64,000 nt of DNA from an uncultured virus (IMG/VR IMGVR_UViG_3300035670_008414) (IMGVR_UViG_3300035670_008414); one strand, 5' to 3'. Numbered from the stretch's first letter, positions 4,729 through 55,547 are shown. Numbers and translations: made by a program. Notes: generated by a model not told the origin, from the letters alone.

Positions 4729-6006
4729 ATGTCTAAAAATAAAAGCAAGGGCGGTATGTTTATGGGAAAGCTTCATAGTGAAGGGGGTATTCCTATAAAG
4801 ATAAAAGAGACTGGACAAGCAATAGAAGTAGAGGGAGATGAGCCATTAATAAGCAATGAAGCAATTAGTGATAATGTAGTTAGAAAAAGACAAGGAACTA
4901 ATGTTGAAATACTAGACCAAATAAATAAAAAGGTAGGTGCTAAAGGAATGAAGGAAAAGGCTACCGAAGTTCATTTAGGGGATGCTATTGTATGTAGAAA
5001 ATCAGCTTACGATAAAAAGAAAAGAACATATATAGGAACGGATAAGCAAATTGTTAGTGCTATAAATAAAAGTGGAGGGTGCAGGGAGATAGAAAAAGGT
5101 GCTAAAGCAATCGAGCCAGATGGTAGTGTTATTCAATATAAAAAGGGGGGTAGCTTAAAAACAAGGTGGGATAAGAAAAAAGCGAGTATTGAGCAGTTAT
5201 CAAAAAACATTCAAAGACTTAGATTAAATTTAACAAAATCATTAAAGTCAAAGGATGAAAAAGAATTTCTCACAGCATTAGTTATTTCTATAATGATGAA
5301 AACTGGAGAAAGGGTAGGTAACTATACTAGTGCTAAAAATGGTCATTTTGGAGTTTCAGGTTTTAGAAAAAAACATATTAAAGTAGAAGGTTCAAATGTA
5401 TATTTAGACTATGTAGGAAAATCTGGAGTAGAACAAGAGAAAAAATTTACCGATAAGGTTTTAAGTTCATATTTAAAGAAAGCAATTAAAGATTCTCCTA
5501 GTCAATATGTTTTTACTACTTCCGATGGTTTTAGAATAAAAGCAGATAGGGTAAATAGATATTTAGAAGATTTTGATGTTACAGCAAAGGATATTCGTGG
5601 GTTTTCGGCTAATAACTGGATTGTAAAAAAGTTAGAGAATTTAGAAATACCTGATTCTGAAAATCAAAGAAAAAGATTATTCAATAAGGTTGGGAAATCA
5701 GTTGCTAAAAAAATAGGTCATGGATTTGCAACACTAAAGAAACATTATTTAATGCCAGAAATCTATGATTACTATTTAAGATATGGTAAAATATTAGATA
5801 CTAAGGAAGCCACTATGTTTGCTAGTGGAGGGGAATTAATAGATGAGAGTTTAAATTTAAGGATTGAGAATAGGTTAAAAGATAATGAAATTACAATTAA
5901 GGATTTAATTGTAATAATTGGAAAAGAACCTGATTACCCTTATGAATATGTAGGTAATTATAAATTACAGAAATGCTTTTTAAGACCTTGTTATAAATTA
6001 GTATGA
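4729..6006 (+). CDS. Polyprotein: HSEGG/EVEG domain - YKKGG - DNA topoisomerase IB catalytic domain - FASGG - C-terminal tag
   Basis: Topo IB pentad: GERVGN (R), YVGKSG (K), KDIRGF (R), IGHG (H), KKHYL (Y). Confidence 0.85.
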   Translation: MSKNKSKGGMFMGKLHSEGGIPIKIKETGQAIEVEGDEPLISNEAISDNVVRKRQGTNVEILDQINKKVGAKGMKEKATEVHLGDAIVCRKSAYDKKKRTYIGTDKQIVSAINKSGGCREIEKGAKAIEPDGSVIQYKKGGSLKTRWDKKKASIEQLSKNIQRLRLNLTKSLKSKDEKEFLTALVISIMMKTGERVGNYTSAKNGHFGVSGFRKKHIKVEGSNVYLDYVGKSGVEQEKKFTDKVLSSYLKKAIKDSPSQYVFTTSDGFRIKADRVNRYLEDFDVTAKDIRGFSANNWIVKKLENLEIPDSENQRKRLFNKVGKSVAKKIGHGFATLKKHYLMPEIYDYYLRYGKILDTKEATMFASGGELIDESLNLRIENRLKDNEITIKDLIVIIGKEPDYPYEYVGNYKLQKCFLRPCYKLV

Positions 6007-7760
6007 CTTTATTAGCACCCAACGGAAAGCCGAGTAATTTAACTCCAGAGCAATATAGAATTGTTCGCACCCATGAATTTATTTCTTGGTTCGGAGATTG
6101 GGAAAAGGCATACGAAACAGGTAATTACGATAATGTTTCAAAGGTTATTGATGAAGAAACAAAAGAACCTTTAGTCGTATATCATGGAACTGATAGAGAT
6201 TTTAATGTATTCGATAAAAATAGAGCAGGAGAATTAGAAACAATAGAAGGGGTTGATAGAAAAATAGGTATTTATTTTAGTAATAAAAGAAGTATTGCAC
6301 GATTTTACACTAAAAATAAAGGTAAAATTTTAGAAGTTTTTTTATGTATAAAAACTCCATTAAAGACAGATAAAGATAAGCTATCAACTTTTCAAATACG
6401 TTTTTTTAAAGAATCAGGAGATGATGGAATAATATGGAATAGGGGTAGTGGAATTTATATTAACAATAAAAAAATACCATTAGAAAAAGGAGAAAAAGCA
6501 GAAATTGAATATATTGTTTTTGAACCCGAACAAATAAAACTTGCCGATGGAACAAACACTACTTTTGATAAAAATAATCCTGATATAAGGTATGATTATG
6601 GAGGTGTTGCTACAAAAATAAAAATGCCAAGTTTTATTGCTCCGAATGGTAATAGAAGTAATCTTTTTCGTATTACAGCAGAAGGAGAAGATGGTAGGTG
6701 GGTTTACCTTTATGATATAGTAAGAACTCCAGAATTTAAAAATTGGTTTGGCGACTGGGAAGAAGCATATAGAACAAAGGATTATGATGGTGTATCAAAA
6801 ATTATAGATGAAAATGGAGAGCCACTTATTTGCTATCATACAACCAATGCAGATTTCTGGGAGTTTAGCGATAGTTATATTGGAAGTAAGACAGATGCAG
6901 GTTTTTATGGAAAAGGTTTCTATTTTACGGAGGGTTCTCCAGATTCTCATTATGGTCAAAGAGAGATACCTTGTTTCTTAAATATCAGAAATCCTTTTAT
7001 ACACATTAGCACATATAGAACTTATCAGCTTAATACAGATGAACTTAAAAGCAAAGGACACGATGGAGTTCTTGTTTTTCCTAATTATTTAGATGCTGAT
7101 AATATTGATTTAAGTAATGGATTAGGTTATAAAGCAAATAGAGTAGATGAAATAGTTGCTTATTATTCAGAAGATATAAAATTAGCCGATGCAACTAATA
7201 CTAAGTTTGATAAATATGACAGTGATATAAGGTATTCAAAAGGAGGTATGATAACAGAAGAAGAAAAAAAGGAAATCTATAAAAAGTGGAAAGACCTTGT
7301 AAATATGTCGGCATCTGAGCTTAAAAAGTTTATGGATAGTGAAGAAGGCAAGGTAGCAGGATTATCAAAAAAAGAAGCTGATAAACTTGGAATAGATTAC
7401 GGAAGGGAAAGTGCTAAGTGGATTCTTAAAATGAAAGATACTCCAGTTAAGGATTGGACACCTAATATGTGGAGATGGGCGAAAAAGCAAATTAGCTTTA
7501 ATTCAAGGATGCGAGGTAATAAAGGAAAATTGTACGATGAAAAAGGCAGAAAGACTAGAAAGCATTTGAGTTTATTGATTTGGGGTCATAATCCTGAGAA
7601 ATATGAGAATGGAGGTATATTGTCTCAAATTTTAGAAGCAAATGAAGTAGAAGGAATTATAGGTAGAAAATTAAACCTATGGAATGACAATATTGTATTT
7701 ATAGAAGGTAAAAAATATAAGAAAATGTATTTGAAACCATTTTACGAAAGAGTTATATGA
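6003..7760 (+). CDS. Polyvalent polyprotein: 2x ADP-ribosyltransferase-like (ART-PolyVal) + DUF3140-like + C-terminal tag
   Basis: Two YHGT/YHTT..G[IF]YF..E.[IV] modules; LVNMSASEL...LSLLIWGHNP; linkers YDYGG, YSKGG, YENGG. Confidence 0.8.
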   Translation: MTLLAPNGKPSNLTPEQYRIVRTHEFISWFGDWEKAYETGNYDNVSKVIDEETKEPLVVYHGTDRDFNVFDKNRAGELETIEGVDRKIGIYFSNKRSIARFYTKNKGKILEVFLCIKTPLKTDKDKLSTFQIRFFKESGDDGIIWNRGSGIYINNKKIPLEKGEKAEIEYIVFEPEQIKLADGTNTTFDKNNPDIRYDYGGVATKIKMPSFIAPNGNRSNLFRITAEGEDGRWVYLYDIVRTPEFKNWFGDWEEAYRTKDYDGVSKIIDENGEPLICYHTTNADFWEFSDSYIGSKTDAGFYGKGFYFTEGSPDSHYGQREIPCFLNIRNPFIHISTYRTYQLNTDELKSKGHDGVLVFPNYLDADNIDLSNGLGYKANRVDEIVAYYSEDIKLADATNTKFDKYDSDIRYSKGGMITEEEKKEIYKKWKDLVNMSASELKKFMDSEEGKVAGLSKKEADKLGIDYGRESAKWILKMKDTPVKDWTPNMWRWAKKQISFNSRMRGNKGKLYDEKGRKTRKHLSLLIWGHNPEKYENGGILSQILEANEVEGIIGRKLNLWNDNIVFIEGKKYKKMYLKPFYERVI

Positions 7761-7933
7761 ATGAGGAAAAAGAAATATTTTTGCCAGATACAAGCATTAA
7801 ATTAAAGAATCTGAAAAGTAAACTAAATAATGTTTATGAATTAGATTTAATAACCAAAAGAGAAAAAATGATATACATAGGAATACTAGGTATATTGGGG
7901 GGAATTATACTCTACAAATTTTTAAAAAAATGA
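7757..7933 (+). CDS. 58-aa tail-anchored membrane protein (not in ORF track)
   Basis: ATGA overlaps at both ends; MIYIGILGILGGIILYKFLKK. Confidence 0.7.
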   Translation: MNEEKEIFLPDTSIKLKNLKSKLNNVYELDLITKREKMIYIGILGILGGIILYKFLKK

Positions 7934-10900
7934 GAATTGCTCAAACACCATCTCCTAAAAAAGAACGGATATTTGGTTCAAAAAAAAACAAGCCTAAATC
8001 ATCTGAAAGCAAATACAAAGCAAGTTCAATAGTTTTAAATCCTAAGACTATTGCTTCTATTAAATCAATTATAGAAAAGCATAATGATAAGTTTTCGGAT
8101 AAAAAAATACCATTAGCTACTGCAAAGGCTGTTGTTCGTAGAGGTATGGGAGCTTATAGTGTATCACATAGACCAACAATAAAAGGAGGTAAACCAAATA
8201 GCAGGGTTGCTTGGGGATTAGCCAGATTAAATGCCTTTGTTTATAAAATACAAAAAGGAACTTCTAAATCTGGAAGATACAATCAGGATGATGATTTGAT
8301 AAATGAATTAGGATATAGAGTAAAAAAATATGCCGAAGGAGGAAAAATGGAAAATAATATAATTGGAGGTAAATCAGATAAAAAAACAATAGAAGATATT
8401 GCTAATATGCACAATGTTTCTATTGATTTTGCTAAAGAGCAATTAGAAAAAGGAATAAAGGTTGAAATGGAACATACAAGCGATACCGAAAAAGCTTACG
8501 AAATTGCATTAGACCATTTATTTGAATTTATTAATTACTACATTGAGCTTGAAAAGATGGAAGAAAAGCTATCTAAACAAGCTAAGTCTGGTATGTCAAA
8601 TGAATATAAGGGTAAGATTTTAGAAAAAATTAATGACACTATATTTTATAGATACTACCCATTAAATTCAAATCCTTTTGATGTTAGCGATAGCCTTGAT
8701 AATAAATATGGAAAAGGAATTTACTTTTTAGATAATCCTTATTACTATCAGGATAAATTCAAAGATGGTATGTTAGTTACCATAAAGCCTAAATTAAAAA
8801 ATCCTAAGTTGTATTTAAGAAAAGAATCAATAACTCCTAATATTGATTATTCATTAGATATTATTGATGCCTTAAAAGATAATATTAAAAACAAAAATGA
8901 ATTTTCGGATAAATTGATTTCAGAGGGTTACGATAGTATAATTGCTATTGAGCCTAGAGGAATGTATTTAGTGTTTTTATTTAATGACCCAGAAAATTAT
9001 GATGTTTTATCGGATAAAAGAAACATGATGGCTTATGGGGGGGAAATTAAACCAGTAGATTTTGTTTCAGATACAATTACAAGTTCTATTGAGGATTTAA
9101 TCGCACAGGGAAATTATTCAGATTTAACATTATTAGAAGCTTTGTACTTTTTCAAGACCTTTCGTAACATTGATTATGGTAAGGGAAAATTTATGTCTAA
9201 TGATGGAGTTAAAGGCATAATGCGTAATAAATTAGTTAATCAAGGATATATTAATGATAGCTGGTTAATTTATTATGAAACTGAATTTGCCGATAATTTT
9301 GATATAGATGATGATAATTATTCTCCTACCGAAAAAGGATATAAATTTTTAAATGCTATTGCAAATAGACACAGAACAAGGAAGGGATTAAAAGAGGGTA
9401 TAGATTTATTTCCTGAATTTGCTAATGTAAAAGAATATGACACTAGAAAAGAATCTAATAAAGCCAAATTAGATAATTTGATTGGTTCACTTTCTAAAAA
9501 ATACAATGATGGTGGAGAGGTTCTATTAGCACCGAATGGAAAACCAAGTAATTTAACTCCAGAGCAATATAGAATTGTTCGCACCCCTGAATTTATTTCT
9601 TGGTTCGGAGATTGGATTAATTCTCCAGAAACAGCAAGTAAAGTAGTTGATGAAAATGGAGAGCCATTAATGGTTATACATAAAACAAATTTGGAAAATG
9701 ATTTTTATGTTTTTGATAAGAATAAAATTGGTGATGCAAATTCATTCACAACTTTAAATGGTTTTTTCTTCGGTAATTACGAAAAAGAAAGTAATAATTT
9801 AAGAAACATATTATGCTTTTTGAGTATTAAAAATCCTATTGTTTTGAATCAATCAAATACTTATTTTGATAGTGTTGGTTATCAAGAAGCAGTACAACAT
9901 TTTATTCAAAATGGAACAACTGATTATTTGGTTGATTATTTAGAACACGAAGAATATGATGATTATGAAATAAATGAAATTTTAGATAACTGGAAATACA
10001 CAGATGGTGTTATAGTCAAAAATCTTTATTATGATAATTTCGATATTGAATATGTTGTATTTCAACCCGAACAAATAAAACTTGCCGATGGAACAAACAC
10101 TACTTTTGATGGAAATAACCCTGATATAAGATATTCAAATGGAGGAAATGTTTATTTTAGAAATTTAGCAAATATCAAAATACTTAACGAAAGGGAATCA
10201 AGAACATTTTATAGAAGGACTTATGCCGATGGAACTATACAAGAATTTAGTGTTTTAGGAGAAAGCAATTCCGATATAAGATATGCAAATGGAGGACAAG
10301 CTTCTTCATGGGAAAAAATGACTTCCGCAAGTTCAAGGTTTAAGCCTTCTGAAACTATTGTATTTGACCCTCCTTTGATTGGATTAAATGGTAATAAACT
10401 AACTTCTTATACATGGTCTTATGAAATGACTATGCAACCTAATTGGGAAGGAGAATTAGTTTCTAAAAGAGTTTCAGATTGGACACAAGCCGAAGCTAGT
10501 GCAGAAACAGGAAGGAATTTAGTTCATCAATATACTATTGAGCTACCTAATGGAGATATAAAAACAGTTAGTTCAGAATCAGTACCTATTCTTTTAGGAT
10601 ATGTAGATAGAACTCAGGCAAAGGCATTTGGTAACTTAGCAACTGCATCTAAAACACTTGCAAAACAACAAATGCAATTAGCTATAATGGAAGCTCAAAA
10701 GAAAGAATATGATGAGATAGTTGCTAAATATGAAAAAGAGCTAAAACCTCAAATAAGGATAGCTACATTAGATGAATTAGGTTGGGGAGCAAAAATAAAA
10801 ATGGAAGAAGCTATGCAAAAAAATGAAGTTCCTAGTCAAACTTTTTTTACTATGGGAGATGTTATTATAGGTCAATATAATAAAGATTATTATGATTCTA

Positions 10901-11088
10901 ACTATGGAACAAAGTATATTCTTATAGATACTCCAAATAAAAACACAATTGAACAATTAACTTCAATGTGGATTTCTAAAAGAGTAGAGGAAGATGGAGG
11001 TAAATATCCTAGAGGTTTATATGACCTAAAAAATAGAGTAGAAAGACAAAAACGCAAAGTAGAAAATTTGCTAAGTAATAAAAATTAA
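7930..11088 (+). CDS. Polyvalent polyprotein: DUF5824-like, DUF5661-like, ART-like modules and unknown modules
   Basis: RRGMGAYSVSHRP..AWGLARLNAF; GIKVEMEHT..IALDHL.E..YY; LLAPNGKPSNL ART module; 5 xxxGG linkers. Confidence 0.75.
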   Translation: MRIAQTPSPKKERIFGSKKNKPKSSESKYKASSIVLNPKTIASIKSIIEKHNDKFSDKKIPLATAKAVVRRGMGAYSVSHRPTIKGGKPNSRVAWGLARLNAFVYKIQKGTSKSGRYNQDDDLINELGYRVKKYAEGGKMENNIIGGKSDKKTIEDIANMHNVSIDFAKEQLEKGIKVEMEHTSDTEKAYEIALDHLFEFINYYIELEKMEEKLSKQAKSGMSNEYKGKILEKINDTIFYRYYPLNSNPFDVSDSLDNKYGKGIYFLDNPYYYQDKFKDGMLVTIKPKLKNPKLYLRKESITPNIDYSLDIIDALKDNIKNKNEFSDKLISEGYDSIIAIEPRGMYLVFLFNDPENYDVLSDKRNMMAYGGEIKPVDFVSDTITSSIEDLIAQGNYSDLTLLEALYFFKTFRNIDYGKGKFMSNDGVKGIMRNKLVNQGYINDSWLIYYETEFADNFDIDDDNYSPTEKGYKFLNAIANRHRTRKGLKEGIDLFPEFANVKEYDTRKESNKAKLDNLIGSLSKKYNDGGEVLLAPNGKPSNLTPEQYRIVRTPEFISWFGDWINSPETASKVVDENGEPLMVIHKTNLENDFYVFDKNKIGDANSFTTLNGFFFGNYEKESNNLRNILCFLSIKNPIVLNQSNTYFDSVGYQEAVQHFIQNGTTDYLVDYLEHEEYDDYEINEILDNWKYTDGVIVKNLYYDNFDIEYVVFQPEQIKLADGTNTTFDGNNPDIRYSNGGNVYFRNLANIKILNERESRTFYRRTYADGTIQEFSVLGESNSDIRYANGGQASSWEKMTSASSRFKPSETIVFDPPLIGLNGNKLTSYTWSYEMTMQPNWEGELVSKRVSDWTQAEASAETGRNLVHQYTIELPNGDIKTVSSESVPILLGYVDRTQAKAFGNLATASKTLAKQQMQLAIMEAQKKEYDEIVAKYEKELKPQIRIATLDELGWGAKIKMEEAMQKNEVPSQTFFTMGDVIIGQYNKDYYDSNYGTKYILIDTPNKNTIEQLTSMWISKRVEEDGGKYPRGLYDLKNRVERQKRKVENLLSNKN

Positions 11089-11089
11089 A

Positions 11090-13489
11090 ATGGAATTATT
11101 AGCTCCTAATGGAAAACCTAGCAATCTTACTCCTGAACAATATCATTTAGTAAGAACTCCTGAATTTATCGCTTGGTTCGGAGATTGGCTTAAACTTGCT
11201 ATGGCAAGGGTTAAAGACCCAGCTATGGATGATGTTACACTTAAAGCAATTTCTGAAAATGTTTCAAAAGTAGTTGATGAGAACGGAGAACCTTTGGTGG
11301 TTTATCATGGAACTAATAGACAATTTAATGTATTTGATTTAAAAGAAATAGGTCAAGGCACTGGCAATTTAGGGCATTATGGTTATGGTTTTTATTTTTC
11401 TAATGACATAAGGGAAGCCAAAGGTTATGGAGAAACCATTTTAAAGTGTTACCTTAATATTAGAAAGCCTTTCACTGGTACAGAAAAAGAATTTGATTTA
11501 TTAAAAAACGAAGGTTTTACAGGTATAGATGAAAAAGTTGCTTTAAGCATTGATTTTCAAGACTTATATAAAAAAATTAAGTCTGTGGACTCAAATGCTT
11601 ACAAGTTTATGCAAATAGCCAAAGAAAAAGGAATTGATAATGTTTGGAGCGAATATTTAGAATCTAATTCAAGTTCAAATAATGGCAAAATAGACTTAAA
11701 TGATTTATATGAAGTTTTAACTTATACAGATTTATTTAGTCAAAATAATTCAATTCCAAGTTATGTTTTAGATGAATTTCAATCATTTGGAATTGAACCT
11801 AAAATAAACTATGGGTATGAACACGCTCAATCTTTACATTGGGTTACGGACTTAGGAAACAACTCAAAAATTTTCACTAATTTTATAAAATCATTGAATT
11901 ATGATGGAGTAATTTATGGAAGTGAATATGTTGCATTTGAACCAAACCAAATAAAACTTGCCGATGGAACAAATACTACTTTTGATTCTAACAATCCAGA
12001 TATAAGGTATGAAAATGGAGGAATGACTTATAGGCAATATGTAGATACTCAATTTAATGAAAATGAAGATAGATATTTACCAAGTGATTATTTAGAAGAT
12101 TTTGAAATAAAATATGACACTTTAAATAATTATCCAATATTGTATAAATTTAAAGATAGATTTCAATTTAGATTAGAAAATGAAAATAATAGTTCAATAG
12201 GAGTTTTTGATGGAGATAAACAAATAGCCTATGCTGATAATAAAGTTATTGAAGTTTCCCCATTATACCAAAGGAAAGGCATCGGTTTAGAATTAGTAAC
12301 TATTTTGAAAGAAAGAAATCCAAATCATCGTTTTGGAAGCATGACCCCACAAGGTTTTAATCTTATGGGCAAATACTATGATGAAAAAATAAAGAAAAAA
12401 TTTGACAACGGAGGTAGTATTGATAACCAAAAAAATAAAGAATTAGTTGCTCAAAAAATAAAAATCAGGAATAAATTATCTAGCCTTTTAAAAACATTAG
12501 ACTATAAAACAATTGATATTCATTCTGGTAAATCAAAAGAGGATTTGTTTATCCAAAGGGTTATAGACATGATTTATAATGGATATGACTTTAAAAGCAA
12601 ACTAGATATTGAAAGAATTGCAGTTAAAGAGTTTAATTTTGAGGATGCCAAAAAGGTTAGGGAGCTTACCGAGTATGCAATTCTATTTGTAGGTAGAGAT
12701 ATTTCAAAAGAAAATGATATTAAATCTACCTATGACAAGTTAGTTTCCTTATATGCTAATCAGCCTTATTCTACTCATAGGACTGCTAAATCTATGGAAC
12801 TAGGACAATTCAGCACCCCTGCTCCAATGGCTTATTTAATGGGAGTTTATGTTGGAATAAATAAATCTGATAATAATATATTCTTAGAGCCAACAGCAGG
12901 AAATGGTATGCTAACAATTGCTGGTAATCCAAATGACTTTGTTGTTAATGAATTAGATTTTAACCGATACAATAACTTATTGAAAGATAATTATAAGGAA
13001 GTTTTAAATAAAGATGCTTCAAAACCTATTGATTATGGTTATCAATTTGATGGTTTAATAGCTAACCCTCCTTTTGCAACAACTAAAATAGACTTGTTTA
13101 TAGATAACTATAAAATAAGTGGATTAGAAAATCAAATTATAATTCGTTCTTTAGAATATTTAAAAGATAATGGTAAAGCTGCATTTATAATTGGAGGACA
13201 CACAGAGTTTGATTCAGCAGGAAGGATAAAATCAGCAAAAGACAAAACATTTTTATCTTATTTATATAGCAGATACAATCTTCAAGATGTTATAAATATT
13301 TCAGGAACTTTATACGGAAGGCAAGGCACTACATATCCAATCAGAATATTATTAATTGATGGGAAAAAACCTATTCCACAAGGTTATTATCCATTGAAAA
13401 ATGACAACCTGACTATATTTGACCCTTTTTCTGTAAAGGTTATAAATAATTTTGATGAATTATACAAAAGATTTGAAAATTTTATTTAA
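11090..13489 (+). CDS. Polyprotein: ART-like + GNAT-like + N6-adenine DNA methyltransferase (DarB-like)
   Basis: VYHGT/GFYFS/EYVAF; EVSPLYQRKGIG; GQFSTP, LEPTAGNG, ANPPF; linkers YENGG, FDNGG. Confidence 0.85.
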   Translation: MELLAPNGKPSNLTPEQYHLVRTPEFIAWFGDWLKLAMARVKDPAMDDVTLKAISENVSKVVDENGEPLVVYHGTNRQFNVFDLKEIGQGTGNLGHYGYGFYFSNDIREAKGYGETILKCYLNIRKPFTGTEKEFDLLKNEGFTGIDEKVALSIDFQDLYKKIKSVDSNAYKFMQIAKEKGIDNVWSEYLESNSSSNNGKIDLNDLYEVLTYTDLFSQNNSIPSYVLDEFQSFGIEPKINYGYEHAQSLHWVTDLGNNSKIFTNFIKSLNYDGVIYGSEYVAFEPNQIKLADGTNTTFDSNNPDIRYENGGMTYRQYVDTQFNENEDRYLPSDYLEDFEIKYDTLNNYPILYKFKDRFQFRLENENNSSIGVFDGDKQIAYADNKVIEVSPLYQRKGIGLELVTILKERNPNHRFGSMTPQGFNLMGKYYDEKIKKKFDNGGSIDNQKNKELVAQKIKIRNKLSSLLKTLDYKTIDIHSGKSKEDLFIQRVIDMIYNGYDFKSKLDIERIAVKEFNFEDAKKVRELTEYAILFVGRDISKENDIKSTYDKLVSLYANQPYSTHRTAKSMELGQFSTPAPMAYLMGVYVGINKSDNNIFLEPTAGNGMLTIAGNPNDFVVNELDFNRYNNLLKDNYKEVLNKDASKPIDYGYQFDGLIANPPFATTKIDLFIDNYKISGLENQIIIRSLEYLKDNGKAAFIIGGHTEFDSAGRIKSAKDKTFLSYLYSRYNLQDVINISGTLYGRQGTTYPIRILLIDGKKPIPQGYYPLKNDNLTIFDPFSVKVINNFDELYKRFENFI

Positions 13490-13571
13490 TAAAAATTAAA
13501 TTCTTTATTTTTGTTTGCTATATTGACAATAATTAATATACATATTTTACTAAAAAATAAATCAACTTAAA

Positions 13572-16500
13572 ATGGAAAATACAAAATTTGATGATGGTGG
13601 TATGACTACAAATGAATCATCAATGATTAATATAGAGGAATTTGGAGCAGACCCTTCTAATCCTTTGGAAGAAAAAGAAGTTCAAAATGCTGATGCTACT
13701 TCTCAGGCATACGAGCCTATATCAAAGGTTTGTGATACTGTTGATACAGTTGCACCAGTTTCTATGTTATATGAAATGAATAAATCCCTTTCAAGTATTG
13801 ATAGGAAAGTAAGGGGAGTTGATTATTTTGTAATGGAAAGGCTAGGTTATGATAACCTAATGGATTTATGCTCTGCTTTTTCAGCCGAACAAGTGGATGG
13901 AGTGGCTAATGCTATTTATCAGATTGAAAGAGGTCAAGCCTTAATTATTGGAGACCAAACAGGAATCGGAAAAGGGAGACAAGCAGCAGCTATTATCAGA
14001 TACGCAATAAAAGTTGGTAAATTACCAATATTCTTAACTCAAAAGCCAAATTTATTTTCAGACATATATAGAGATTTAATTGCTATTGGTAGCGATGATG
14101 CTATACCTATGGAATATAATGTAGGAGAATATGAGAGGGTAAGAAAAGTTACTAGTGCTTTAATAAAAGATAAAATAAAAGATGATATTGAAAATGGAGA
14201 TTTTGAATTAGAATATAATACAGAAGATTTATTTTCAAAGGAAAACAAAAAAGTATTAAATGAAGTAATCGAAGAATATAGAGAGCTTTATTTTCCCTCA
14301 TCAGTTGAAAAATATACTTCTTATAAAAAAAATAAAGAGTACCAATCTGATATAAGGGGTAAAAAAAGAATTGTTCCTTTTATAGTAAATGCTAAAAACG
14401 ATAAAACGAAGATTAAAGATGATAAGGGTAATATATTATATACTACTGAAAAAGATATTCAGACCTCTGCTTTTGATAGTATGATGTTGCCAAAGGGATA
14501 TGATGTAGTTTTACTAACATATTCTCAGATAAACAAAATGTCAAATAAGGTAACGTGGTTATCTAGTATAGCAAATGAATCTATTGTAATTATGGATGAA
14601 AGTCATACTGCTAGTGGAGAAAGTGCTACTGGTAGAATGATAGAAGGTATCATAGAAAAATCTTATGGCGTTTGTTTCTTATCTGCGACATTTGCTAAAA
14701 AGCCATCTAATATGCCTATTTATGCTATGAAAACAGCAATTAGGGATGCTGATATGGAAAAGGACAAATTAGTTCAGGCAATAAGTCAAGGTGGAGTAGC
14801 ATTACAGGAAATACTTTCTTCTCAATTAGTTTTGGAAGGTCAAATGTTAAGGAGAGAGAGGTCTTACGAAGGAGTAGTAGTAAATTACAACTACTTAGAT
14901 GATAGAATGTTAGACCGAGATGTTCCTTTACCACAATTTGATTTAAAAGAAGCTCATCAGTCAATATCAGATAAAGTTACCGATATTTTAAGAAGGATTA
15001 TAACATTTCAAAAAGAGAAAGTTAATCCTATTATCGAAAGAATGGATATTGAATATGCAGAAAGCCAAATAAGAGTAGGAGTTGAAAGACAAAATGTAGA
15101 AGGTGGTATCAGTAATTATCCCTTGTTTAGCGGAATTTTTAATCTTGTAAATCAATTGCTTTTGTCTATAAAAGCAGAAGCAGTAGCAGAATTTGCAGTA
15201 ATGAGATTAAAAGAAGGTAAAAAGGTAGTAATTGGTTTGGCTAGTACCCTTGAAAGCTTCTTAGATTATATGGTTGCTGATGAAGGAGGTAAAATAAAAA
15301 CTGATTTTGGTGTTATTTTAAGAAGAAGACTAGAAAAGACACTAGAGTACACTATGAAATTAGAAGATGGTAGTACCGAAAAGGAAGCTTTAAATTATAG
15401 TGAATACCCAGAATTACAAATAGAATATAATGAGATATTGGATGATATTGAAAATGCTTCTACTGGTATTACAATAAGTCCAATTGATGTAATAGTTAAT
15501 TACATTAAGAACGCAGGTTATGAAATTGGAGAGGTTACTGGAAGAAATAAGTATGTAGAGTTTTTAGGTAATAATTATGGAGTTATTAAGGATAGGAGAA
15601 AAGAACCTGCAAATGATTTATTTAGAAAGTTTAATAATAATGAATTAGATTGTTTAATCATTAATCAATCAGGTGCAGTTGGTGCTTCGGCTCATGCAAT
15701 AAAAACAGATAAAGTTAATGTTGTAAACTATGATTCAGAAGGAAATCCAATTATACCTACATCACTATATCCTAAAAATGAAGTTAAACAGCGAGTAATG
15801 ATTATTTTACAAGCTGAATTAGACATTAATAATGAAGTACAAAAAAGAGGTCGTATAAATAGAACTGGTCAAATATTTAAACCAATTTATGACTATGTAA
15901 TTTCATCTATACCAGCAGAGGAAAGGTTAATGATGATGTTACAAAAGAAATTAAAATCTTTGGATGCTAATACTACTTCTAATCAAAAACAATCTTCAAA
16001 AGTATTGAATGTAGTAGATTTTTTAAATGTTTATGGAGATGAAAAAGTTGCTGAATTTTTAACTAATAATCCTACATTCAATGAAATGACAGGTTCTTTA
16101 GTTAAAATTGAAGATGGAAAACTTGATACATCTTCAAACTTAGTTGATTTAGCTCATAGGGTAAGTGGTAGAGTAGCTGTTTTAAGTGTTGAAAATCAAA
16201 ATACATTTTACAAAACAGTTTCTACTGCATATATTGATAAAGAAAAACAATTAAGGTCTTTAGGAGAATGGAATTTAGAGGTTGAGAGTATAGATTTAGA
16301 AGCTAAAACTTTAAATAGAGAAGTGGTTGCTGTTGGTAATCCAGATTCAAAATCAGTATTCGGAAGTCCTGTATTTATTGAAAAATGCGAAGTAAACAAT
16401 CTTCGTAAGCCTTATAAGAAAAGCGATGTAATTACAATGATAGATGAATCATTAGTTGTTACTATGGCTGATGGAAAAAGGATGAAAATGAATCCAGATG

Positions 16501-17807: not shown

Positions 17808-17816
17808 TAAATAATT

Positions 17817-20807: not shown

Positions 20808-20843
20808 TTTGCCTATATTGTTTATTTAAAAAAAAAATATAAA

Positions 20844-23785: not shown

Positions 23786-24304
23786 ATGAATGAAGATGAA
23801 TTAGAAATCCAGCACAGAACATTAATTGAAGAAGAAGAATTAGAAGTTTCTTCACTTCCTACTGAAATTAAAAATGCAATGCGAAAGTTCAATATGAAAC
23901 TAGCTAAGTATGAAGATAGTGGAGATGAAGAATTGTTCTATGAATTGCAACAAGATGATGTAGCAATTGCAGATAATATCTTAACTTTCATTGAAGATAA
24001 CAATTCTGATGATGAAGATGAAGATGAGGATTATTTAGAAGAACAAAGAGAGAAAGAGCAAGAGCAAGAGAAAGAGAAAGAGCAAGAAAAAATTGAGGTA
24101 AAAAATGAAGAACCTGCTAAACAGGTAAACCCAGTTAATAACCTAGAGGAGCAAATTAAGGCATTGGTTAAGAATGGAAAAATTAGTGTTAGCGATTTAG
24201 AAAACATTATAAAAAGAGAACCTGATTATCCTAATGAGCAAGTAGGTAATTTAATTTTGAAAAAGGTTTATTTACAACCTTATTACGAAGTTTACCAAAA
24301 ATAA
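23786..24304 (+). CDS. Acidic scaffold-like protein carrying the shared C-terminal tag
   Basis: D/E-rich; ends IIKREPDYPNEQVGNLILKKVYLQPYYEV; no GG linker. Confidence 0.75.
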   Translation: MNEDELEIQHRTLIEEEELEVSSLPTEIKNAMRKFNMKLAKYEDSGDEELFYELQQDDVAIADNILTFIEDNNSDDEDEDEDYLEEQREKEQEQEKEKEQEKIEVKNEEPAKQVNPVNNLEEQIKALVKNGKISVSDLENIIKREPDYPNEQVGNLILKKVYLQPYYEVYQK

Positions 24305-36207: not shown

Positions 36208-36406
36208 TTTTTTGTTTTTTAGTTATTTTACCCCAAATAAATTCGTATATGTAGTATGTAAATATTTTTATTACAAAATCAGCTATACTTATTGCTAAAC
36301 TAAAATTTGTTCTTCCTGTAACAATAAATGAAATAATAAATGTTATTACAGAAGAATAAATTCTATAAAAAAAGGACTTTAAAAATATTGTAAATTTTTC
36401 TTTCAT
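36197..36406 (-). CDS. DUF2061-like small membrane protein
   Basis: KSFFYRI...YYIYEFIW; commonly adjacent to cysC. Confidence 0.7.
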   Translation of the reverse strand: MKEKFTIFLKSFFYRIYSSVITFIISFIVTGRTNFSLAISIADFVIKIFTYYIYEFIWGKITKKQKNDN

Positions 36407-44518: not shown

Positions 44519-45067
44519 ATGAACAACAACTTTGAACTTTTAAATGCGGAAGGACTTGATGAAAGTATTTCTAACACTATGGGATTAGAATATTCTGATT
44601 TTTGCTGTGGTGCAGATGGACAAACAGCTCCTAGTGGAGAAGGAAAGCCTAAAATTGACCCTGCCTTGATTGCACAAGGTGCAGCTACATTAGGAGGTAT
44701 AATAAAAAATATTTCAGCAAATAGAAAACCTACCGATGAAGAACTATTTGCTAGATGCGATAAAAAGCCGGGTATTTTAGCAGGGAAAAAAAAGAAAGAA
44801 AAATGGGAAAAATGTAAAAATGATTTTTATGCAGAAAAATCAAAAGCAGCCGATGCTGAACTAGAAAAACAAAGACTTATAGCTCAACAAGAACAAATTC
44901 GATTAGAGCAACAAAGATTAGGTGCTATGGCTTCAAAAGATTCGGGTAAATCTTCCGATGATAAATTCTTAGGTATGCCAAAGGCAGTTGGAATTACTGT
45001 TGCTATTGTAGGTGGTATAGCAGTTTTAGTAGGGGGTTTCTTTTTAGTTAAAAAGCTTAGAAAATAA
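44519..45067 (+). CDS. Tail-anchored membrane protein, LxNxxxLD N-motif
   Basis: LLNAEGLD; KFLGMPKAVGITVAIVGG. Confidence 0.75.
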   Translation: MNNNFELLNAEGLDESISNTMGLEYSDFCCGADGQTAPSGEGKPKIDPALIAQGAATLGGIIKNISANRKPTDEELFARCDKKPGILAGKKKKEKWEKCKNDFYAEKSKAADAELEKQRLIAQQEQIRLEQQRLGAMASKDSGKSSDDKFLGMPKAVGITVAIVGGIAVLVGGFFLVKKLRK

Positions 45068-46625: not shown

Positions 46626-48926
46626 ATGGACACACCAAAAATTTACATTGCAGATTTAGCTGCTTATAATGAAGGCAAATTAATAGGAGAATGGGTTGAT
46701 TTATCTGATTTCAATGATGGTTCAGAGGTAATGGATGAAATTCAGTCTTTACTAGAAAAATGGTCTAGTGAACAAGGAGAAGAAAGAGAAGAATATGCTA
46801 TTCATGATTTTGAAAATTTCAGCCGAGACTTATATAGTGAATATATGGGAGAAGAAGAATTTGATAAGATAATCAAAATTTATAGTATAAGTGAAGATAA
46901 AAACATTCCACAGGAAGTAATTGGAACTTTAGTTAGAGAATATGGATTAGAGCCTGATGAAATTGAAGATTGGATTGATGAGCATTATCAAGGTCAATTT
47001 GATTCCGATGAAGATTTAGCCTATAATTATATTGAAATGGTGGGTGGAGTTGAAGGATTAGGAGAAGATACAATGAAAAGATATTTCGACTATGAATCAT
47101 TTGGTAGGGATTTGGCTTATGACTATGCAGAATACGATGGACACTATTTTAGAACATATAAAGATGGTGGTTCGGTATCTTATGATTTGAACAAATATAT
47201 TAAAGAAGGTAAAGGATATAAAAGAGGAGGTAAGGTTAAAAATTACTGGATTCAAGATGCTTTAGGAGGTAAAAAAGGAGTTTTAAAAAGAAAAGCTCTT
47301 AAAGAAGGATTAGTAAGGAGCATGGATGAGAAATTATCTAAAACAGACCTTAGAAAATTACAAAAGATGGGAGGTAAAACTGCTAAGAGAGCTTATTTGG
47401 CAGAAACATTGAGGTCTTTTGCCAAAGGCGGTGGGGTTGGAGATTTTAACATAGGTCAAAGTGTAACTATTGATAGATACAATGATAATGAAAATTACGA
47501 TGATTATAGAGGTAAAGAGCTAGTAATAACTGATAAAATAACAAGTTCAAAACAGCATCCTGATTTTGATGAAGGAATAGAAGGACAAGCATTATATTCT
47601 TTTGTTTTAAGAGAAACAGGAGAAGATGTTCCATTTAGTTTGTATGATTATGAACTAGAACAATACGCAAAAGGCGGTGGGGTTGGGGAATACGATTCTG
47701 ATGGATATAGTTATGAGATTTTCTATTCACTTGATAACCCAGAAATTTTCGTGAAAAAAGAAAAAGGTAGATTGGGTAGATACGCTGTATTCGTTGGAGG
47801 AACTATGAGGAGCGGACATCCTGATTTGAAATCAGCTATTAGACAAGCAGACTGGATGCACAATTTTATGTTAAAAAATAAATATGCCAAAGGCGGTGGG
47901 GTTGGAGATTTTAACATAGGTCAAAGTGTAACTATTGATAGATACAATGATAATGAAAATTACGATGATTATAGAGGTAAAGAGCTAGTAATAACTGATA
48001 AAATAACAAGTTCAAAACAGCATCCTGATTTTGATGAAGGAATAGAAGGACAAGCATTATATTCTTTTGTTTTAAGAGAAACAGGAGAAGATGTTCCATT
48101 TAGTTTGTATGATTATGAACTAGAACAATACGCAAAAGGCGGTGGGGTTGGGGAATACGATTCTGATGGATATAGTTATGAGATTTTCTATTCACTTGAT
48201 AACCCAGAAATTTTCGTGAAAAAAGAAAAAGGTAGATTGGGTAGATACGCTGTATTCGTTGGAGGAACTATGAGGAGCGGACATCCTGATTTGAAATCAG
48301 CTATTAGACAAGCAGACTGGATGCACAATTTTATGTTAAAAAATAAATATGCCAAAGGCGGTGGGGTTGGTCGTAGAACAAAAAACTACAAGTATATTCC
48401 AAATCGAATGATTCAGTCAGCAGAAGTAAAGAAAGGTAGAAAAGTAACTGAAATTGCTGGTAAAAATATTCTTGATGGAATTTATGTTAGAGGTAAAGTT
48501 AAATTTGACAATGGAGGTTCTATTGATGATAAATTTTCAATGTCAAAACTTACTCGTGAAAATGGAAAATTTGTAGAAATGGTTATTGCAGAAAATGTAA
48601 CTGTTGGAGAGTTTGAAAAAATGTTTAATGACAAGGGTTATAGGAAAGTTTCAGATACAAGCTTAGTTGGATTTTATTTTGTTAAACCTAATGGAGATAC
48701 AATACAATTAGTTCCAAGTTTCCATAAAAGAGGAGAAATTTTACAATATGAAAATGGAGGTTCTATTGGTTCGGAAGAAGAAGAAGTAAGAAACAACCTT
48801 GTAAATGGAGAAATTTCATGTGAAGCATTACAAAATATTTTGGGTTGCAAACCTGAATATCCAGTTCAAGTTGTTGGTTCATTAAAATTAACTAAGAGCT
48901 TTTTAAGACCTTATTACACAATTTAA
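46626..48926 (+). CDS. ardA: Polyprotein: ArdA antirestriction domain + GG-delimited modules + C-terminal tag
   Basis: KIYIADLAAYNEGKLIGEWVDL, EEYAIHDFE, YFDYESFGRDL; nine [YF]xxGG linkers. Confidence 0.85.
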   Translation: MDTPKIYIADLAAYNEGKLIGEWVDLSDFNDGSEVMDEIQSLLEKWSSEQGEEREEYAIHDFENFSRDLYSEYMGEEEFDKIIKIYSISEDKNIPQEVIGTLVREYGLEPDEIEDWIDEHYQGQFDSDEDLAYNYIEMVGGVEGLGEDTMKRYFDYESFGRDLAYDYAEYDGHYFRTYKDGGSVSYDLNKYIKEGKGYKRGGKVKNYWIQDALGGKKGVLKRKALKEGLVRSMDEKLSKTDLRKLQKMGGKTAKRAYLAETLRSFAKGGGVGDFNIGQSVTIDRYNDNENYDDYRGKELVITDKITSSKQHPDFDEGIEGQALYSFVLRETGEDVPFSLYDYELEQYAKGGGVGEYDSDGYSYEIFYSLDNPEIFVKKEKGRLGRYAVFVGGTMRSGHPDLKSAIRQADWMHNFMLKNKYAKGGGVGDFNIGQSVTIDRYNDNENYDDYRGKELVITDKITSSKQHPDFDEGIEGQALYSFVLRETGEDVPFSLYDYELEQYAKGGGVGEYDSDGYSYEIFYSLDNPEIFVKKEKGRLGRYAVFVGGTMRSGHPDLKSAIRQADWMHNFMLKNKYAKGGGVGRRTKNYKYIPNRMIQSAEVKKGRKVTEIAGKNILDGIYVRGKVKFDNGGSIDDKFSMSKLTRENGKFVEMVIAENVTVGEFEKMFNDKGYRKVSDTSLVGFYFVKPNGDTIQLVPSFHKRGEILQYENGGSIGSEEEEVRNNLVNGEISCEALQNILGCKPEYPVQVVGSLKLTKSFLRPYYTI
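47420..48370 (+). repeat. 465-bp tandem duplication (2 units), apparently identical, bounded by GG-linker DNA
   Basis: gccaaaggcggtggggttgg at 47421, 47886, 48351; intervening sequence looks identical by eye. Confidence 0.95.
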
Positions 48927-50297: not shown

Positions 50298-51110
50298 ATG
50301 AATTTTTCGATACCATGTAACGGATTGCCATTTACTTTGATTGTCGGTATAAAAACTAACAAGCCTGAAAATATTTGCCTTACTGCTAAAGATTATCATA
50401 AGCAAAATACATACTACATTAGTAGAAAAGGAATGGTAAATGGTTATAAGGAATATGAATTAAAGTTCCCACAAACTCCAAAGCTATTAGTATTTTCTAT
50501 TTTCAACTTAGATAAGGGTAATTTTCCAAATAATGAGGATGATTCATTCAAAATAGTAAAATTTGAAGCTGAGAATTGTAAAACATATCCACTTTGGGGA
50601 GATAAAGATGTTTTTAATTTTGTAAAGTTTGCAAAAGAATTTTCAGCAAATGCAAGTGTTTTATCATCTGGAGACTTTAAGCCTAGTATTTATCGTTCCG
50701 ATGATGGTAAATTTTGTATTGACTATTATAATAAAATTAGAGATAGAAAAAGTGGTAGATTTGTTAGTACCCCTGCTAGAATAGGACATCAAACAGGTAT
50801 TATAGAAATTTCTAAGTCTGATTTTGAAAAATATACTGTGCCTATGAGAATGGTAATTTTATTGCATGAATTTTCTCATAAGTACATGAATCCAAAAGTA
50901 AATAGAGAAATATCAGATGAAATTGCAGCCGATATTAATGCTCTAAATATTTATCTTTCATTAGGTTATCCAGACATTGAAGCTCAATATGCGTTTTTAA
51001 GAGTATTTAAGGGAGCTAATAACTCTTTAAATAAAAAGAGATATTTGATTTTGGATGATTTCATAAAGAAATTTTCCAAAGGAGACTTGGAAAATAAGCT
51101 AGATGTATAA
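50298..51110 (+). CDS. Zincin-like metallopeptidase
   Basis: VILLHEFSH followed by EIAAD third-ligand motif. Confidence 0.7.
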   Translation: MNFSIPCNGLPFTLIVGIKTNKPENICLTAKDYHKQNTYYISRKGMVNGYKEYELKFPQTPKLLVFSIFNLDKGNFPNNEDDSFKIVKFEAENCKTYPLWGDKDVFNFVKFAKEFSANASVLSSGDFKPSIYRSDDGKFCIDYYNKIRDRKSGRFVSTPARIGHQTGIIEISKSDFEKYTVPMRMVILLHEFSHKYMNPKVNREISDEIAADINALNIYLSLGYPDIEAQYAFLRVFKGANNSLNKKRYLILDDFIKKFSKGDLENKLDV

Positions 51111-53105: not shown

Positions 53106-53341
53106 TGATAGATGAAAATGAAATAGTTGAAACTAATGTAAAGGAGTTGCAAAAAAGTCAAACAGTTAGACTGATTGATGTATTTGTAATTGCTCCTATT
53201 TGTGTTTATGCTGGTTTCAAATATTCAAAGACTATGCCTTATTGGTTAAGTTTGAGCCTGATTGGTATAGGACTTGCGACTTTTGTTTATAATGGAAAAA
53301 ATTATTTAGAGAATAAAAATAATTTAAAATTAGTTGAGTAA
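53105..53341 (+). CDS. Two-TM small protein
   Basis: RLIDVFVIAPICVYAG; WLSLSLIGIGLATFVYNG. Confidence 0.7.
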   Translation: MIDENEIVETNVKELQKSQTVRLIDVFVIAPICVYAGFKYSKTMPYWLSLSLIGIGLATFVYNGKNYLENKNNLKLVE

Positions 53342-55119
53342 TGGGATTAATTGATTGGTTTGATTTTGATAAAAAAATGGCTTTGATTAATCTCGGTCAA
53401 ATTGAAGAATATGCTATAAAGTTAGATAAGATAGTTTCAGATGAATCTGAATTAGAAGATTGGGTTAAAATGAAACTAACTAAGGTTGAGCAAAATATAG
53501 CAGATGTAAAAAAATCTCTTAAAGGTTGGGAAAAATTCGAGGGATATGAAGAAGGAGGTAGAATATTCAAAAAACAATTACTTCATATTGGTAGCTATGC
53601 AAAAGATTTAATTGAAATGATTAAGTCAGGCTCTAAGCTAATGTCATGGCAAGAAAATAAACTTGCTGTAAGTGCAGAATATATTGATGGTATATATCAT
53701 CATTTAGAATATGAAATGGGTAAAAGAGCAAGTGATATTAAAGAATATGCTAATGGTGGCATGGTTAATTATTACGACAAAGATGCAGAGTATAAGATAG
53801 GCAGACCTTCGGGAAGTATTGAAAAAGACATACTTAGTAAAGTCGATTATGAATATTTAAAGCCTTATTTTATTGGAAATTTTGGTTGGAAAACTCCAAA
53901 TGGAAAATTAGCAGATGGGTATTTATTCAGTTTAGATAATTTTGACCAAGATTTAGTAAGAAAAATAAATTTAAAAGAAGGAGAAAAAATTTATAGATAC
54001 TTTAATAGCACTACTGCAATAGGTGGCTCTACTCCATTTATAAAAATAAATTTGTTAAAAGGACTTCTATATTTTTCTATACCAAATGAAAATGATGATA
54101 TTATCTTTGAAACAAAGGGTATTAAATCAGAATGGATAAATTTAATTTCGGATAAATATGCTAATGGAGGTGCTATTGATACTTTTCCAAAATCAATAAA
54201 AGATAAAATTGATGAAATAAATTCACTTATTGAATGGTCAAAAGATAAGGAAAATTTAGTAGGAGGTTATTTTGGAGGTACTTACTATGAGTATTTAGAT
54301 TTTGAAAAACCGATTACAATTAAAAATAATTTTGTTTATATAGAATACAATCAAGGTGGTGGAAAGGAATCAAAAGAAAGATACAATGTAAACAAAAAAA
54401 GTCAATTTGATAGTTATGGTTTATATGAGCTAAAAAAAGAACTTATGAGAATACATGGTGCTTTCAAAAGAGCAAAGAAAAAATATGATGAAAAAGGCTA
54501 TTTTGATAATGGAGGTAATATTCAAGAAGATTTTGATTGGAATAAACTTTTTGAACCTCTATCTGAAATGGAACAAAATATTCTAAATGAAAGAATAAGA
54601 AAAGAAGAATCAGAACTTACTACAAAGGAGAAAGATAGTTGGGCGAAACAAATAAGAGCTAGTGGCAATAATTGGAATGAAGCCTTTATTCGTAGAGTAA
54701 ATTCAGCAAAACATAACATTGATAAATTTATTGAGTGGTCAAATAAAAAATATGGAGAAGAAAAAGCTCAATCTTATTTTTCTTATGCTTTAGAAGATAT
54801 TGATAGCATTAGAGAATTAAGATATGGTGCTTTAAGATATGCAAATAATTTAGAAAAAAGGCTTCGTGAAGCATACGACCAATACTTTGTAAAAGGAGTA
54901 AAGAAATTCGATATTGGAGGAGACATAGAGGATTTATCAATAGCTTCTAAAACATTCTCTAAAACTTCCGAAATGTTAGTTAGGGAAAATTTAAAAGATG
55001 GAGAAATTTGTGTTTGTAAATTAAAAAAGATTCTAGGTCATGAACCTGAATATCCATTTCAAATTGTAGGAAGTTTGAAATTAGAAAAAGTATTTTTAAA
55101 ACCTTATTATAAAATTTAA
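53341..55119 (+). CDS. Polyprotein of GG-delimited modules + C-terminal tag
   Basis: Two helical repeats (L.I..YA..L....L..W...KL); YEEGG, YANGG x2, FDNGG, FDIGG; ILGHEPEYP...FLKPYYKI. Confidence 0.75.
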   Translation: MGLIDWFDFDKKMALINLGQIEEYAIKLDKIVSDESELEDWVKMKLTKVEQNIADVKKSLKGWEKFEGYEEGGRIFKKQLLHIGSYAKDLIEMIKSGSKLMSWQENKLAVSAEYIDGIYHHLEYEMGKRASDIKEYANGGMVNYYDKDAEYKIGRPSGSIEKDILSKVDYEYLKPYFIGNFGWKTPNGKLADGYLFSLDNFDQDLVRKINLKEGEKIYRYFNSTTAIGGSTPFIKINLLKGLLYFSIPNENDDIIFETKGIKSEWINLISDKYANGGAIDTFPKSIKDKIDEINSLIEWSKDKENLVGGYFGGTYYEYLDFEKPITIKNNFVYIEYNQGGGKESKERYNVNKKSQFDSYGLYELKKELMRIHGAFKRAKKKYDEKGYFDNGGNIQEDFDWNKLFEPLSEMEQNILNERIRKEESELTTKEKDSWAKQIRASGNNWNEAFIRRVNSAKHNIDKFIEWSNKKYGEEKAQSYFSYALEDIDSIRELRYGALRYANNLEKRLREAYDQYFVKGVKKFDIGGDIEDLSIASKTFSKTSEMLVRENLKDGEICVCKLKKILGHEPEYPFQIVGSLKLEKVFLKPYYKI

Positions 55120-55133
55120 CTCAAAAAACAATC

Positions 55134-55547
55134 ATGGCAAAAAAATCAAAAACTCCTAGTAGAGATAAAAAAGTTAAGGCAAAGCCTTCTGGTTATCGTT
55201 TTAAAACTAAGGACATCGAGGGATTAACTAAAAAAGATGGTACTCTAAACAAAAAGGGTAAAAAATTATATTTTAAAAGACCTACAAAAGCAGAGGTAGA
55301 AAAATATAAGAAGCAAGATGGGGAATACCCTAGTGAAACAAAACAAGTTTACAAAGAAGTAAGAGAGGAAAGAGGGGATGCTAACTTGAAAAAAAAGTTT
55401 AACGAAGGAGGTAATGTAGTAGTTGAAATGAGCATAGAAGAAATGAGAAATGCTTTAGGTAGAGAGCCTAAATATCCTTATGATTTTATTGCAGGTAAAA
55501 AATACACAAAGTGTTTTTTAAGACCATACTATAAAACCGAAGAATAA
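55134..55547 (+). CDS. Basic module - FNEGG - C-terminal tag
   Basis: K/R-rich N-module; ALGREPKYPYDFIAGKKYTKCFLRPYY. Confidence 0.75.
   Translation: MAKKSKTPSRDKKVKAKPSGYRFKTKDIEGLTKKDGTLNKKGKKLYFKRPTKAEVEKYKKQDGEYPSETKQVYKEVREERGDANLKKKFNEGGNVVVEMSIEEMRNALGREPKYPYDFIAGKKYTKCFLRPYYKTEE

Follow-up and report, generated by a model that had tools for sequence, protein, structure and literature searches.

A folded C-terminal domain shared by otherwise unrelated proteins of a large uncultured virus of bacteria, and its possible role in loading effectors into the virion

In a 64 kb stretch of DNA (the window) from an uncultured virus (IMG/VR IMGVR_UViG_3300035670_008414), six proteins, all encoded on the + strand, end in one and the same C-terminal module of about 40-50 amino acids (aa), as seen in the translations. 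This module, here called the tag, appears, judging by sequence comparison, to represent a new and sizeable family. We read it, tentatively and at slightly less than an even chance, as a virion-loading domain for co-delivered effectors that is possibly removed by cleavage. Genes are named by start coordinate (e.g. 4729, 23786), and a payload is a tagged protein without its tag. The six tagged genes are as follows.

4729..6006, + strand, 425 aa: tag at 5848..6003 (+), scoring 89 bits against the tag profile; the payload has GG linkers at residues 137 and 364, one on either side of its TopoIB-like catalytic core (residues 143-339; Pfam Topoisom_I)
6003..7760, + strand, 585 aa: tag at 7617..7757 (+), 64 bits, of the divergent RKxNxWxD...YKKxYLxPxY subtype; the GG linkers of the payload, which comprises two ART-PolyVal domains and DUF3140, are at residues 197, 411 and 534
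23786..24304, + strand, 172 aa: tag at 24140..24301 (+), 89 bits; over its 131 aa the strongly acidic payload, which lacks a GG linker, has a net charge of -28
46626..48926, + strand, 766 aa: tag at 48771..48923 (+), 90 bits; at its N-terminus the payload carries an ArdA anti-restriction domain (residues 6-167), after which come about 8 small modules set apart by [YF]xxGG(G) linkers
53341..55119, + strand, 592 aa: tag at 54964..55116 (+), 90 bits, the tail used for the structure model; the payload contains six GG linkers and could not be assigned to a known family
55134..55547, + strand, 137 aa: tag at 55410..55544 (+), 77 bits, beginning 4 residues after a GG; the payload is lysine-rich and basic (net charge +16 over 97 aa)

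A preliminary description of the window had assigned a common tail to six otherwise unrelated proteins, and both halves of that claim hold, with the C-termini reading as it gave them. The six tails can be aligned over about 40-52 residues, with 4 invariant positions. When a hidden Markov model (HMM) built from these tails was scanned against all open reading frames (ORFs) of at least 40 aa in the window, the six carriers scored 64-90 bits and the next ORF scored 8 bits, so that chance is excluded as the origin of the six matches. A six-frame scan of the 64 kb for the pattern L[RKQ]P[YFC]Y gave 6 matches, all in the six named genes and all 2-5 residues before the stop codon. The payloads, in turn, show no significant pairwise similarity (best E = 0.057, BLASTP). 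The architecture common to the carriers consists of domains separated by [YF]xxGG linkers; the tag follows the last xxxGG in five of the six cases, as previously described, with the last GG located 4-27 residues before the tag core, and the 23786 protein lacks any GG.

The AlphaFold2 model of the 54-residue tail of the 53341 protein, based on an alignment of 50 sequences, has a mean predicted local distance difference test score (pLDDT) of 93.2 and contains a helix (residues 5-12), a strand (17-19), a second helix (20-27), a P-x-Y-P loop and three further strands (35-38, 41-45 and 51-53). As modelled, the tag is an autonomous folded mini-domain and not a linear peptide: its core comprises a strand, a helix, the P-x-Y-P loop and a three-stranded sheet, and one further helix often precedes the core. 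The stretch L..GEI...L..I, which had been noted to precede several of the tags, is indeed present; it does not merely precede the tag, however, but forms the helix, strand and helix of the modelled fold, and the unit is therefore a core of about 40 aa, or about 50 aa with the extra N-terminal helix. Four subtypes of the tag were distinguished, each of which stays with its payload class; the first helix is absent from two of them. The common subtype, EPxYPxQxVG...KCFLRPYY, is found on many modular proteins, another is found on the small basic protein, a third on the acidic protein, and the fourth, RKxNxWxD...YKKVYLRPEY, on ART-PolyVal proteins. These subtypes are old.

Fold searches with the tag model returned, at best, E = 0.97 in the PDB and E = 1.0 in BFVD with Foldseek, and a best Z of 3.8 with VIA-align, where winged-helix domains dominate the list (Z 2.6-3.8). 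The sole structural resemblances, to BirA-N, IclR, RAP30, Z-alpha, Rpa2 and the MCM8 winged helix, all come from that list, and they would fit a nucleic-acid tether, i.e. a reduced winged-helix-like domain that would bind the viral genome or host DNA, such that the tagged proteins would either be carried in alongside the DNA or act upon it. A mildly basic tag core (median net charge +2) would fit such a tether too, and several payloads and neighbouring proteins act on DNA (TopoIB among the former, SNF2 and methylase among the latter). However, the fold matches are below the meaningful level, and in the winged-helix comparison the modelled P-x-Y-P loop, 7 residues long, stands where the recognition helix would be. 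Moreover, the charge is modest, with 27 of 155 tags neutral or negative, DNA binding needs no strict C-terminal placement, and the joint tagging of the DNA mimics (ArdA and the acidic protein) and of the lysine-rich protein would fit poorly with a DNA-binding role. We consider the tether an unlikely explanation. Protein Atlas look-ups with the tag and with the 37793 protein (a clade protein described below) gave scores of at most 0.88, a lead at most.

To trace the family, nine tails (those of the six window proteins and three from a related contig) were combined into a profile, and this was compared with 1.84 billion representative proteins, yielding 307 tag carriers at E <= 1e-3, of which 109 were found at E <= 1e-10. 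Among the best 150 of the 307, carrier lengths range from 48 to 1627 aa, and in all 149 carriers examined (the new ones among these 150) the match ends 0-7 residues from the C-terminus. One of them, P0118, has an extra internal copy besides the terminal one and looks like a fusion of two tagged genes. The tag is not covered by any model in Pfam, PHROGs or NCBIfam, and its profile hit no family known for catalysis or DNA binding; the outcome that the preliminary description had named as refuting its reading, a known domain of this sort in internal positions, was thus looked for and did not occur. All 10 carrier clusters whose sources were looked up are metagenomic. At the DNA level, tblastn at E <= 1 found no match to the tag in 50,697 cultured phage records or in 72,556 plasmids. 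A degenerate DNA pattern for the eight most conserved residues, K-C-F-L-[RK]-P-Y-Y, gave 23 matches in 185,579 species genomes, none of which was a true tag when judged by the tag HMM; in IMG/VR, five contigs matched the pattern, of which 3 were true and 2 were chance matches (one of the latter a 'GVMAG' contig). A related-locus search with the 48-aa carrier P0019 as the query gave no match. The true contigs are the following.

G001, a related IMG/VR contig of 102 kb: 3 tags
G002, a related IMG/VR contig of 170 kb, 82% complete according to CheckV: 2 tags
G003, a related IMG/VR contig of 74 kb: 3 tags

The tag thus seems, as far as these comparisons go, to be limited to one viral clade, and text searches of the literature, which were not made by sequence, found no description of the tag, the linker or the clade. 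This distribution bears on two further explanations. The tag could be a host-side or self-association module that binds a host factor after entry or joins effectors to one another, with no role in delivery. Such a role would suit the tag as a conserved folded domain whose C-terminal strand is exposed, aromatic and basic, and winged-helix-like folds often mediate protein contacts (matches to PCI, ESCRT-II and cullin domains were found, all of them weak). Nevertheless, a module of this kind would be expected to have spread to other phages of the same hosts, whereas the 50,697 phage records gave no match, and both the terminal position in 149/149 carriers and the frequent upstream GG would be left unexplained, so we assign this explanation a low probability.

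Alternatively, the tag might be a secretion signal, either the C-terminal domain of the type IX secretion system (T9SS) of Bacteroidota or the coupling-protein signal of the type IV secretion system (T4SS) of a conjugative element, given that C-terminal signals on diverse cargo are typical of both systems. An OmpA-like protein and many membrane proteins are encoded in the window, and polyvalent proteins, to which the payloads are compared below, also occur on conjugative elements, according to the available part of PMC5512222. Nevertheless, neither the six proteins nor the isolated tag matched NCBIfam at E <= 0.1. That collection presumably includes models of the T9SS C-terminal domain. The six N-termini, inspected by eye, lack a signal-peptide-like hydrophobic start, Pfam revealed neither a relaxase nor a VirB4, VirD4 or Tra family in the window, and the plasmids and species genomes contained no match and no true match, respectively. 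The relatives, furthermore, carry genes for an amidase endolysin, spanin-like and tail-fibre-like proteins and many homing endonucleases. A secretion signal is therefore highly improbable; with neither conjugation families, plasmid matches, NCBIfam matches nor signal peptides, the conjugative-element and T9SS readings were rejected.

The linkers are stereotyped. In 65,285 residues of carrier sequence, the consensus [KY][YF]x[NK]GG[GV][VI] occurs 658 times. In the window proteins, the GG linkers fall on the borders of Pfam domains, and they also bound an exact tandem duplication of 155 aa (465 bp) in the 46626 protein. The repeat itself (47420-48370; 2.0 copies, 100% identity) encodes two modules bounded by YAKGGGVG linkers and is either a very recent event in the ArdA-fusion gene or an assembly artefact. 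Of 150 carriers, 78 have a GG in the 25 residues that precede the tag core; among random payload windows the proportion is 32%.

With respect to the payloads, single linkage placed 139 of them in 16 groups, the largest including 108, which indicates that modules are shuffled among carriers. Pfam matched only 4 of 75 carriers scanned (71/75 gave no match), with a RadC-JAB domain among the domains found; in the precomputed Pfam assignments of 104 listed carriers, ART-PolyVal occurs 9 times, Topoisom_I 4 times and GNAT 4 times. Two of the window proteins combine several effector domains in one polypeptide, as polyvalent proteins do: the 6003 protein (ART-PolyVal twice, and DUF3140) and the 46626 protein (ArdA and about 8 modules). 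The acidic and the basic tagged proteins would fit a DNA mimic and a DNA-condensing internal protein, respectively. Between the second and third tagged genes lie five large effector-type genes (7930..22781, + strand) whose products contain [YF]xxGG linkers and have no tag.

7930, + strand: ART-PolyVal and DUF5661, untagged
11090, + strand: ART-PolyVal and a methylase-like domain, untagged
13572, + strand: 1411-aa SNF2/Strawberry-notch helicase with the linker motif at the protein start, untagged
17817, + strand: LPD1, untagged; the protein ends 20 residues after the linker motif
20844, + strand: linker protein with no family named, untagged

The ART-PolyVal, SNF2 and LPD1 domains of these neighbours also fit the polyvalent-protein repertoire. 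The available part of PMC5512222 (Iyer et al. 2017) lists ART, GNAT, RadC, ArdA, SNF2-methylase, LPD1 and zincin peptidases as principal domains of polyvalent proteins, which it predicts to enter the host with the invading DNA, and proposes zincin peptidases as their processors.

A candidate for such a processing enzyme is encoded close to the tagged genes.

50298..51110, + strand: HExxH protein of 270 aa with the motif LLHE[FY]xHK (H190, E191, H194, E208)

The 50298 protein is the best conserved protein common to the window and the three related contigs (80, 68 and 55% identity). Its four motif residues are invariant in 54 sequences of the family; 415 homologues were found, none of them annotated, and HExxH is present in 120/120 of those listed. 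Searches of Pfam, NCBIfam and the PDB by sequence, including a profile search of the PDB, gave no match to this protein, which on sequence grounds may represent a new family of zincin peptidases. The gene is located two genes upstream of tagged 53341 and three upstream of tagged 55134, and the order HExxH gene, 51103 homologue, tagged gene, tagged gene recurs in 4/4 genomes compared. From the motif, the 50298 protein is a reasonable candidate for a zincin-type processing peptidase that would cut the GG linkers. Prediction of a complex between the tag and the HExxH protein gave scores of 0.01 and 0.00 against a mark of 0.32 and is uninformative either way.

The conservation of this protein, its location next to two tagged genes in an order kept in the 3 related contigs, the marking of domain borders by GG linkers and the processing role proposed for zincin peptidases (available part of PMC5512222) are all compatible with the tag being a processing handle or pro-domain, which would dock the chains on the HExxH peptidase, or keep them inactive until the linkers are cut, and thus serve maturation, whether or not the proteins are packaged. 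Under such a scheme, though, the five untagged linker proteins imply that docking via the tag is not required for cutting at GG, and the 23786 protein as well as 17 of the 150 carriers have a tag but no GG; the peptidase activity of the 50298 protein, moreover, is predicted from the motif, with no family or structure match. On balance, a processing handle appears improbable.

We return to the virion-loading domain. The tag would be a common handle that binds one conserved component of the virion, through which diverse anti-restriction and host-modifying proteins would be built into the particle and would enter the next cell together with the DNA; after loading, the stand-alone HExxH protein would cut the [YF]xxGG linkers, freeing the modules and detaching the tag. 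Binding of the tag to a virion part, packaging, the GG as the cleavage site and the HExxH protein as the protease are each inferred. Several observations point to loading: one conserved fold is present on many unrelated payloads; the tag is strictly terminal, as expected of an address or a removable handle; the payload families are typical of proteins delivered with invading DNA; the tag is confined to one clade, which is what binding to a clade-specific component of the virion would predict; three tagged genes (46626, 53341 and 55134) sit inside a conserved, structural-looking block of membrane, fibre-like and clade-core genes; and the GG is often located just upstream.

There are also observations that weigh against the loading handle. 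The five untagged linker effectors imply either that the tag is not the sole route or that not all of these proteins are delivered. As modelled, the tag is folded, not a short peptide like the known loading signals. If cleavage preceded loading, only the last module would be carried in; the order of events in the proposal is assumed. The association of subtypes with payload classes fits any conserved function and not loading specifically. Removal of the tag by cleavage cannot be general because 17/150 carriers lack an upstream GG and, in another 23/150, the GG is more than 40 residues away. Finally, when capsid, portal and terminase proteins were sought by Pfam and PHROGs in the window, in G001 (90 ORFs for Pfam and 72 for PHROGs, from about 69 kb beyond the window's span) and in G002 (86/87 ORFs of at least 190 aa), no major capsid protein, portal or terminase was recognised in the ORFs scanned, and hence the receptor for the tag cannot be named. 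The only packaging-type enzyme recognised is the following.

26209..27060, + strand: HerA/FtsK-type P-loop ATPase of 283 aa, with a weak DUF87 match

A sequence search of the PDB with this ATPase gave no match; 202 homologues were found, many annotated as DUF87, with 47-90% identity across the 120 listed, and these and the HExxH homologues occur on equal-sized contigs (e.g. 148,529, 237,926 and 121,809 bases). The ATPase is a hallmark of the clade and possibly its packaging ATPase.

The comparison with known loading signals is instructive. The capsid-targeting sequence (CTS) of T4 is a short N-terminal peptide that is removed by the head protease after loading. The tag, by contrast, is C-terminal (6/6 in the window, 149/149 among the relatives) and, as modelled, a folded domain of 40-50 aa with no sequence relation to the CTS; it is, accordingly, not a CTS of the T4 type, and no HK97-type head genes were recognised here. 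Removal of the tag is hinted at only by the GG linker upstream (5/6 in the window, 78/150 carriers within 25 residues). The cargo-loading peptides of encapsulins are located at the C-termini of unrelated cargo enzymes and bind the inside of a protein shell; they are linear, comprise about 10 residues, and the shell has the HK97 fold. The tag shares the C-terminal position and differs in being folded, and neither Pfam nor PHROGs identified an encapsulin or an HK97 capsid family in the window. What would link the tag to the T4 system is the use of one conserved address on diverse anti-defence proteins (IPI-III and Alt-type injected enzymes), the T4 proteins being packed in the head and injected, as described in the available part of PMC3012670. 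By analogy, the tag may work like the T4 CTS or an encapsulin peptide, but it belongs to neither group. The removable capsid address envisaged in the preliminary description is the best reading available and is partly supported, by terminal position, payload types and restriction to a clade; capsid loading and cleavage at GG are putative, and in form the predicted folded domain is unlike the peptides of T4 and encapsulins.

Polyvalent proteins are alike in content, with the same repertoire of ART-PolyVal, ArdA, GNAT, RadC, the SNF2-methylase pair, LPD1 and HExxH (PMC5512222, available part). The carriers can be classed as polyvalent-type effectors. Here, however, the domains are distributed among at least 11 genes, and there are the [YF]xxGG linker, a stand-alone HExxH protein and the C-terminal tag; the part of PMC5512222 that was available mentions neither a stereotyped linker nor a tag for polyvalent proteins. 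The MuF-type head-incorporation domain (Phage_Mu_F) is not matched by any of the 65 window proteins scanned against Pfam. Giant phages (SPN3US and the phiKZ group) package many proteins together with the genome, eject them into the cell and trim them with a protease of their own; the abstracts of PMC7411985 and PMC10052503 make no mention of a C-terminal domain common to these ejection proteins. These phages, unlike the virus analyzed here, have a recognisable HK97 capsid, portal, terminase and serine prohead protease, and the cleavage motif is different.

Cleavage of structural or core polyproteins after GG occurs in adenovirus and African swine fever virus, whose packaging ATPase is of the FtsK/HerA type. 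By analogy, the virus described here resembles them in its conserved HerA/FtsK-type ATPase and in the GG linkers located where domains meet. However, the GG-cutting enzymes of those viruses are cysteine proteases, whereas the sole candidate here is the HExxH protein, and the hydrophobic residue is one position further from the GG. In the broadest form of the proposal, the tag would be the address label of a cargo system in an undescribed lineage of large (about 100-240 kb) bacterial viruses that have no recognisable terminase, portal or HK97 module but encode numerous tail-anchored membrane proteins and a small, conserved ATPase of the HerA/FtsK type; polyprotein-like chains of anti-defence modules would be loaded via the tag, after which a new HExxH peptidase would cleave them at [YF]xxGG, a bacterial counterpart of adenovirus and asfarvirus Gly-Gly maturation. 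Taken as a whole, this picture is doubtful.

The element is a large uncultured virus of bacteria with a low GC content (27-33% in the window) and dense coding; its clade is probably lytic and looks undescribed. Besides the genes discussed above, the window encodes a single-stranded DNA-binding protein (SSB), glycine-zipper proteins and many tail-anchored membrane proteins, and the particle is possibly membrane-containing and tailless. The related contigs add thymidylate synthase and a sigma-70 region 4/alpha-CTD protein. They also carry about 20 DNA methyltransferases: in G002 (loci L043-L045), a row of about 20 methyltransferase genes spans roughly 77-116 kb of the contig and represents an exceptionally large set of anti-restriction methylation enzymes.

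The C-termini of four proteins (41169-42956, 44041-44502, 44519-45067 and 48946-50289) share a second feature, resembling a common tail anchor, in which [IF]LGMx(K)P is followed by a transmembrane helix and, last, a basic tip; the 39570, 45079 and 55868 proteins are likewise tail-anchored. The proteins 37793-38596 and 51103-52857 have a 71-residue stretch in common (30% identity, pairwise E = 3e-6), and one 191-aa protein of G002 matches both; this stretch may be a shared beta-rich structural domain. The single-sequence structure model of the 37793 protein has a pLDDT of 37.6. The 837-aa product of 59872-62385, with an N-terminal glycine run and repeated glycine motifs of the SFIGGGGSN type, is probably a fibre or spike, and the 111-aa protein that comes after it matches the C-terminal parts of phage tail-fibre/virion proteins in PHROGs. 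The region 27950-37110, partly on the - strand, encodes glycosyltransferases, three to four sulfotransferases, an FkbM-type methyltransferase and cytidylyltransferase-like and APS-kinase-like proteins, and looks like a sulfated-glycan modification module. The sequence TAnnTTTGTAAAAA is present in two exact copies (4707-4720 and 32895-32908), just upstream of genes 4729 and 32921, and resembles the -7 promoter element of Bacteroidota. Words of this -7 type, considered as a candidate signal upstream of the tagged genes, numbered 11 compared to 6.8 expected, which is not significant (a count of 11 was reached in 11 of 100 shuffles).

If the tag is a delivery handle, the injected proteins of a whole clade would be listable from sequence alone, and the clade is not small, with at least 307 tag-bearing protein clusters, 415 HExxH-protein clusters and contigs of up to 238 kb. 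Most of the payloads cannot be placed in a known family and would then be a plentiful source of new activities in anti-restriction and host takeover, and the 40-aa domain could serve as a portable packaging tag. The combination of stereotyped GG linkers and a conserved HExxH protein points to a type of maturation that has not been described for viruses of bacteria.

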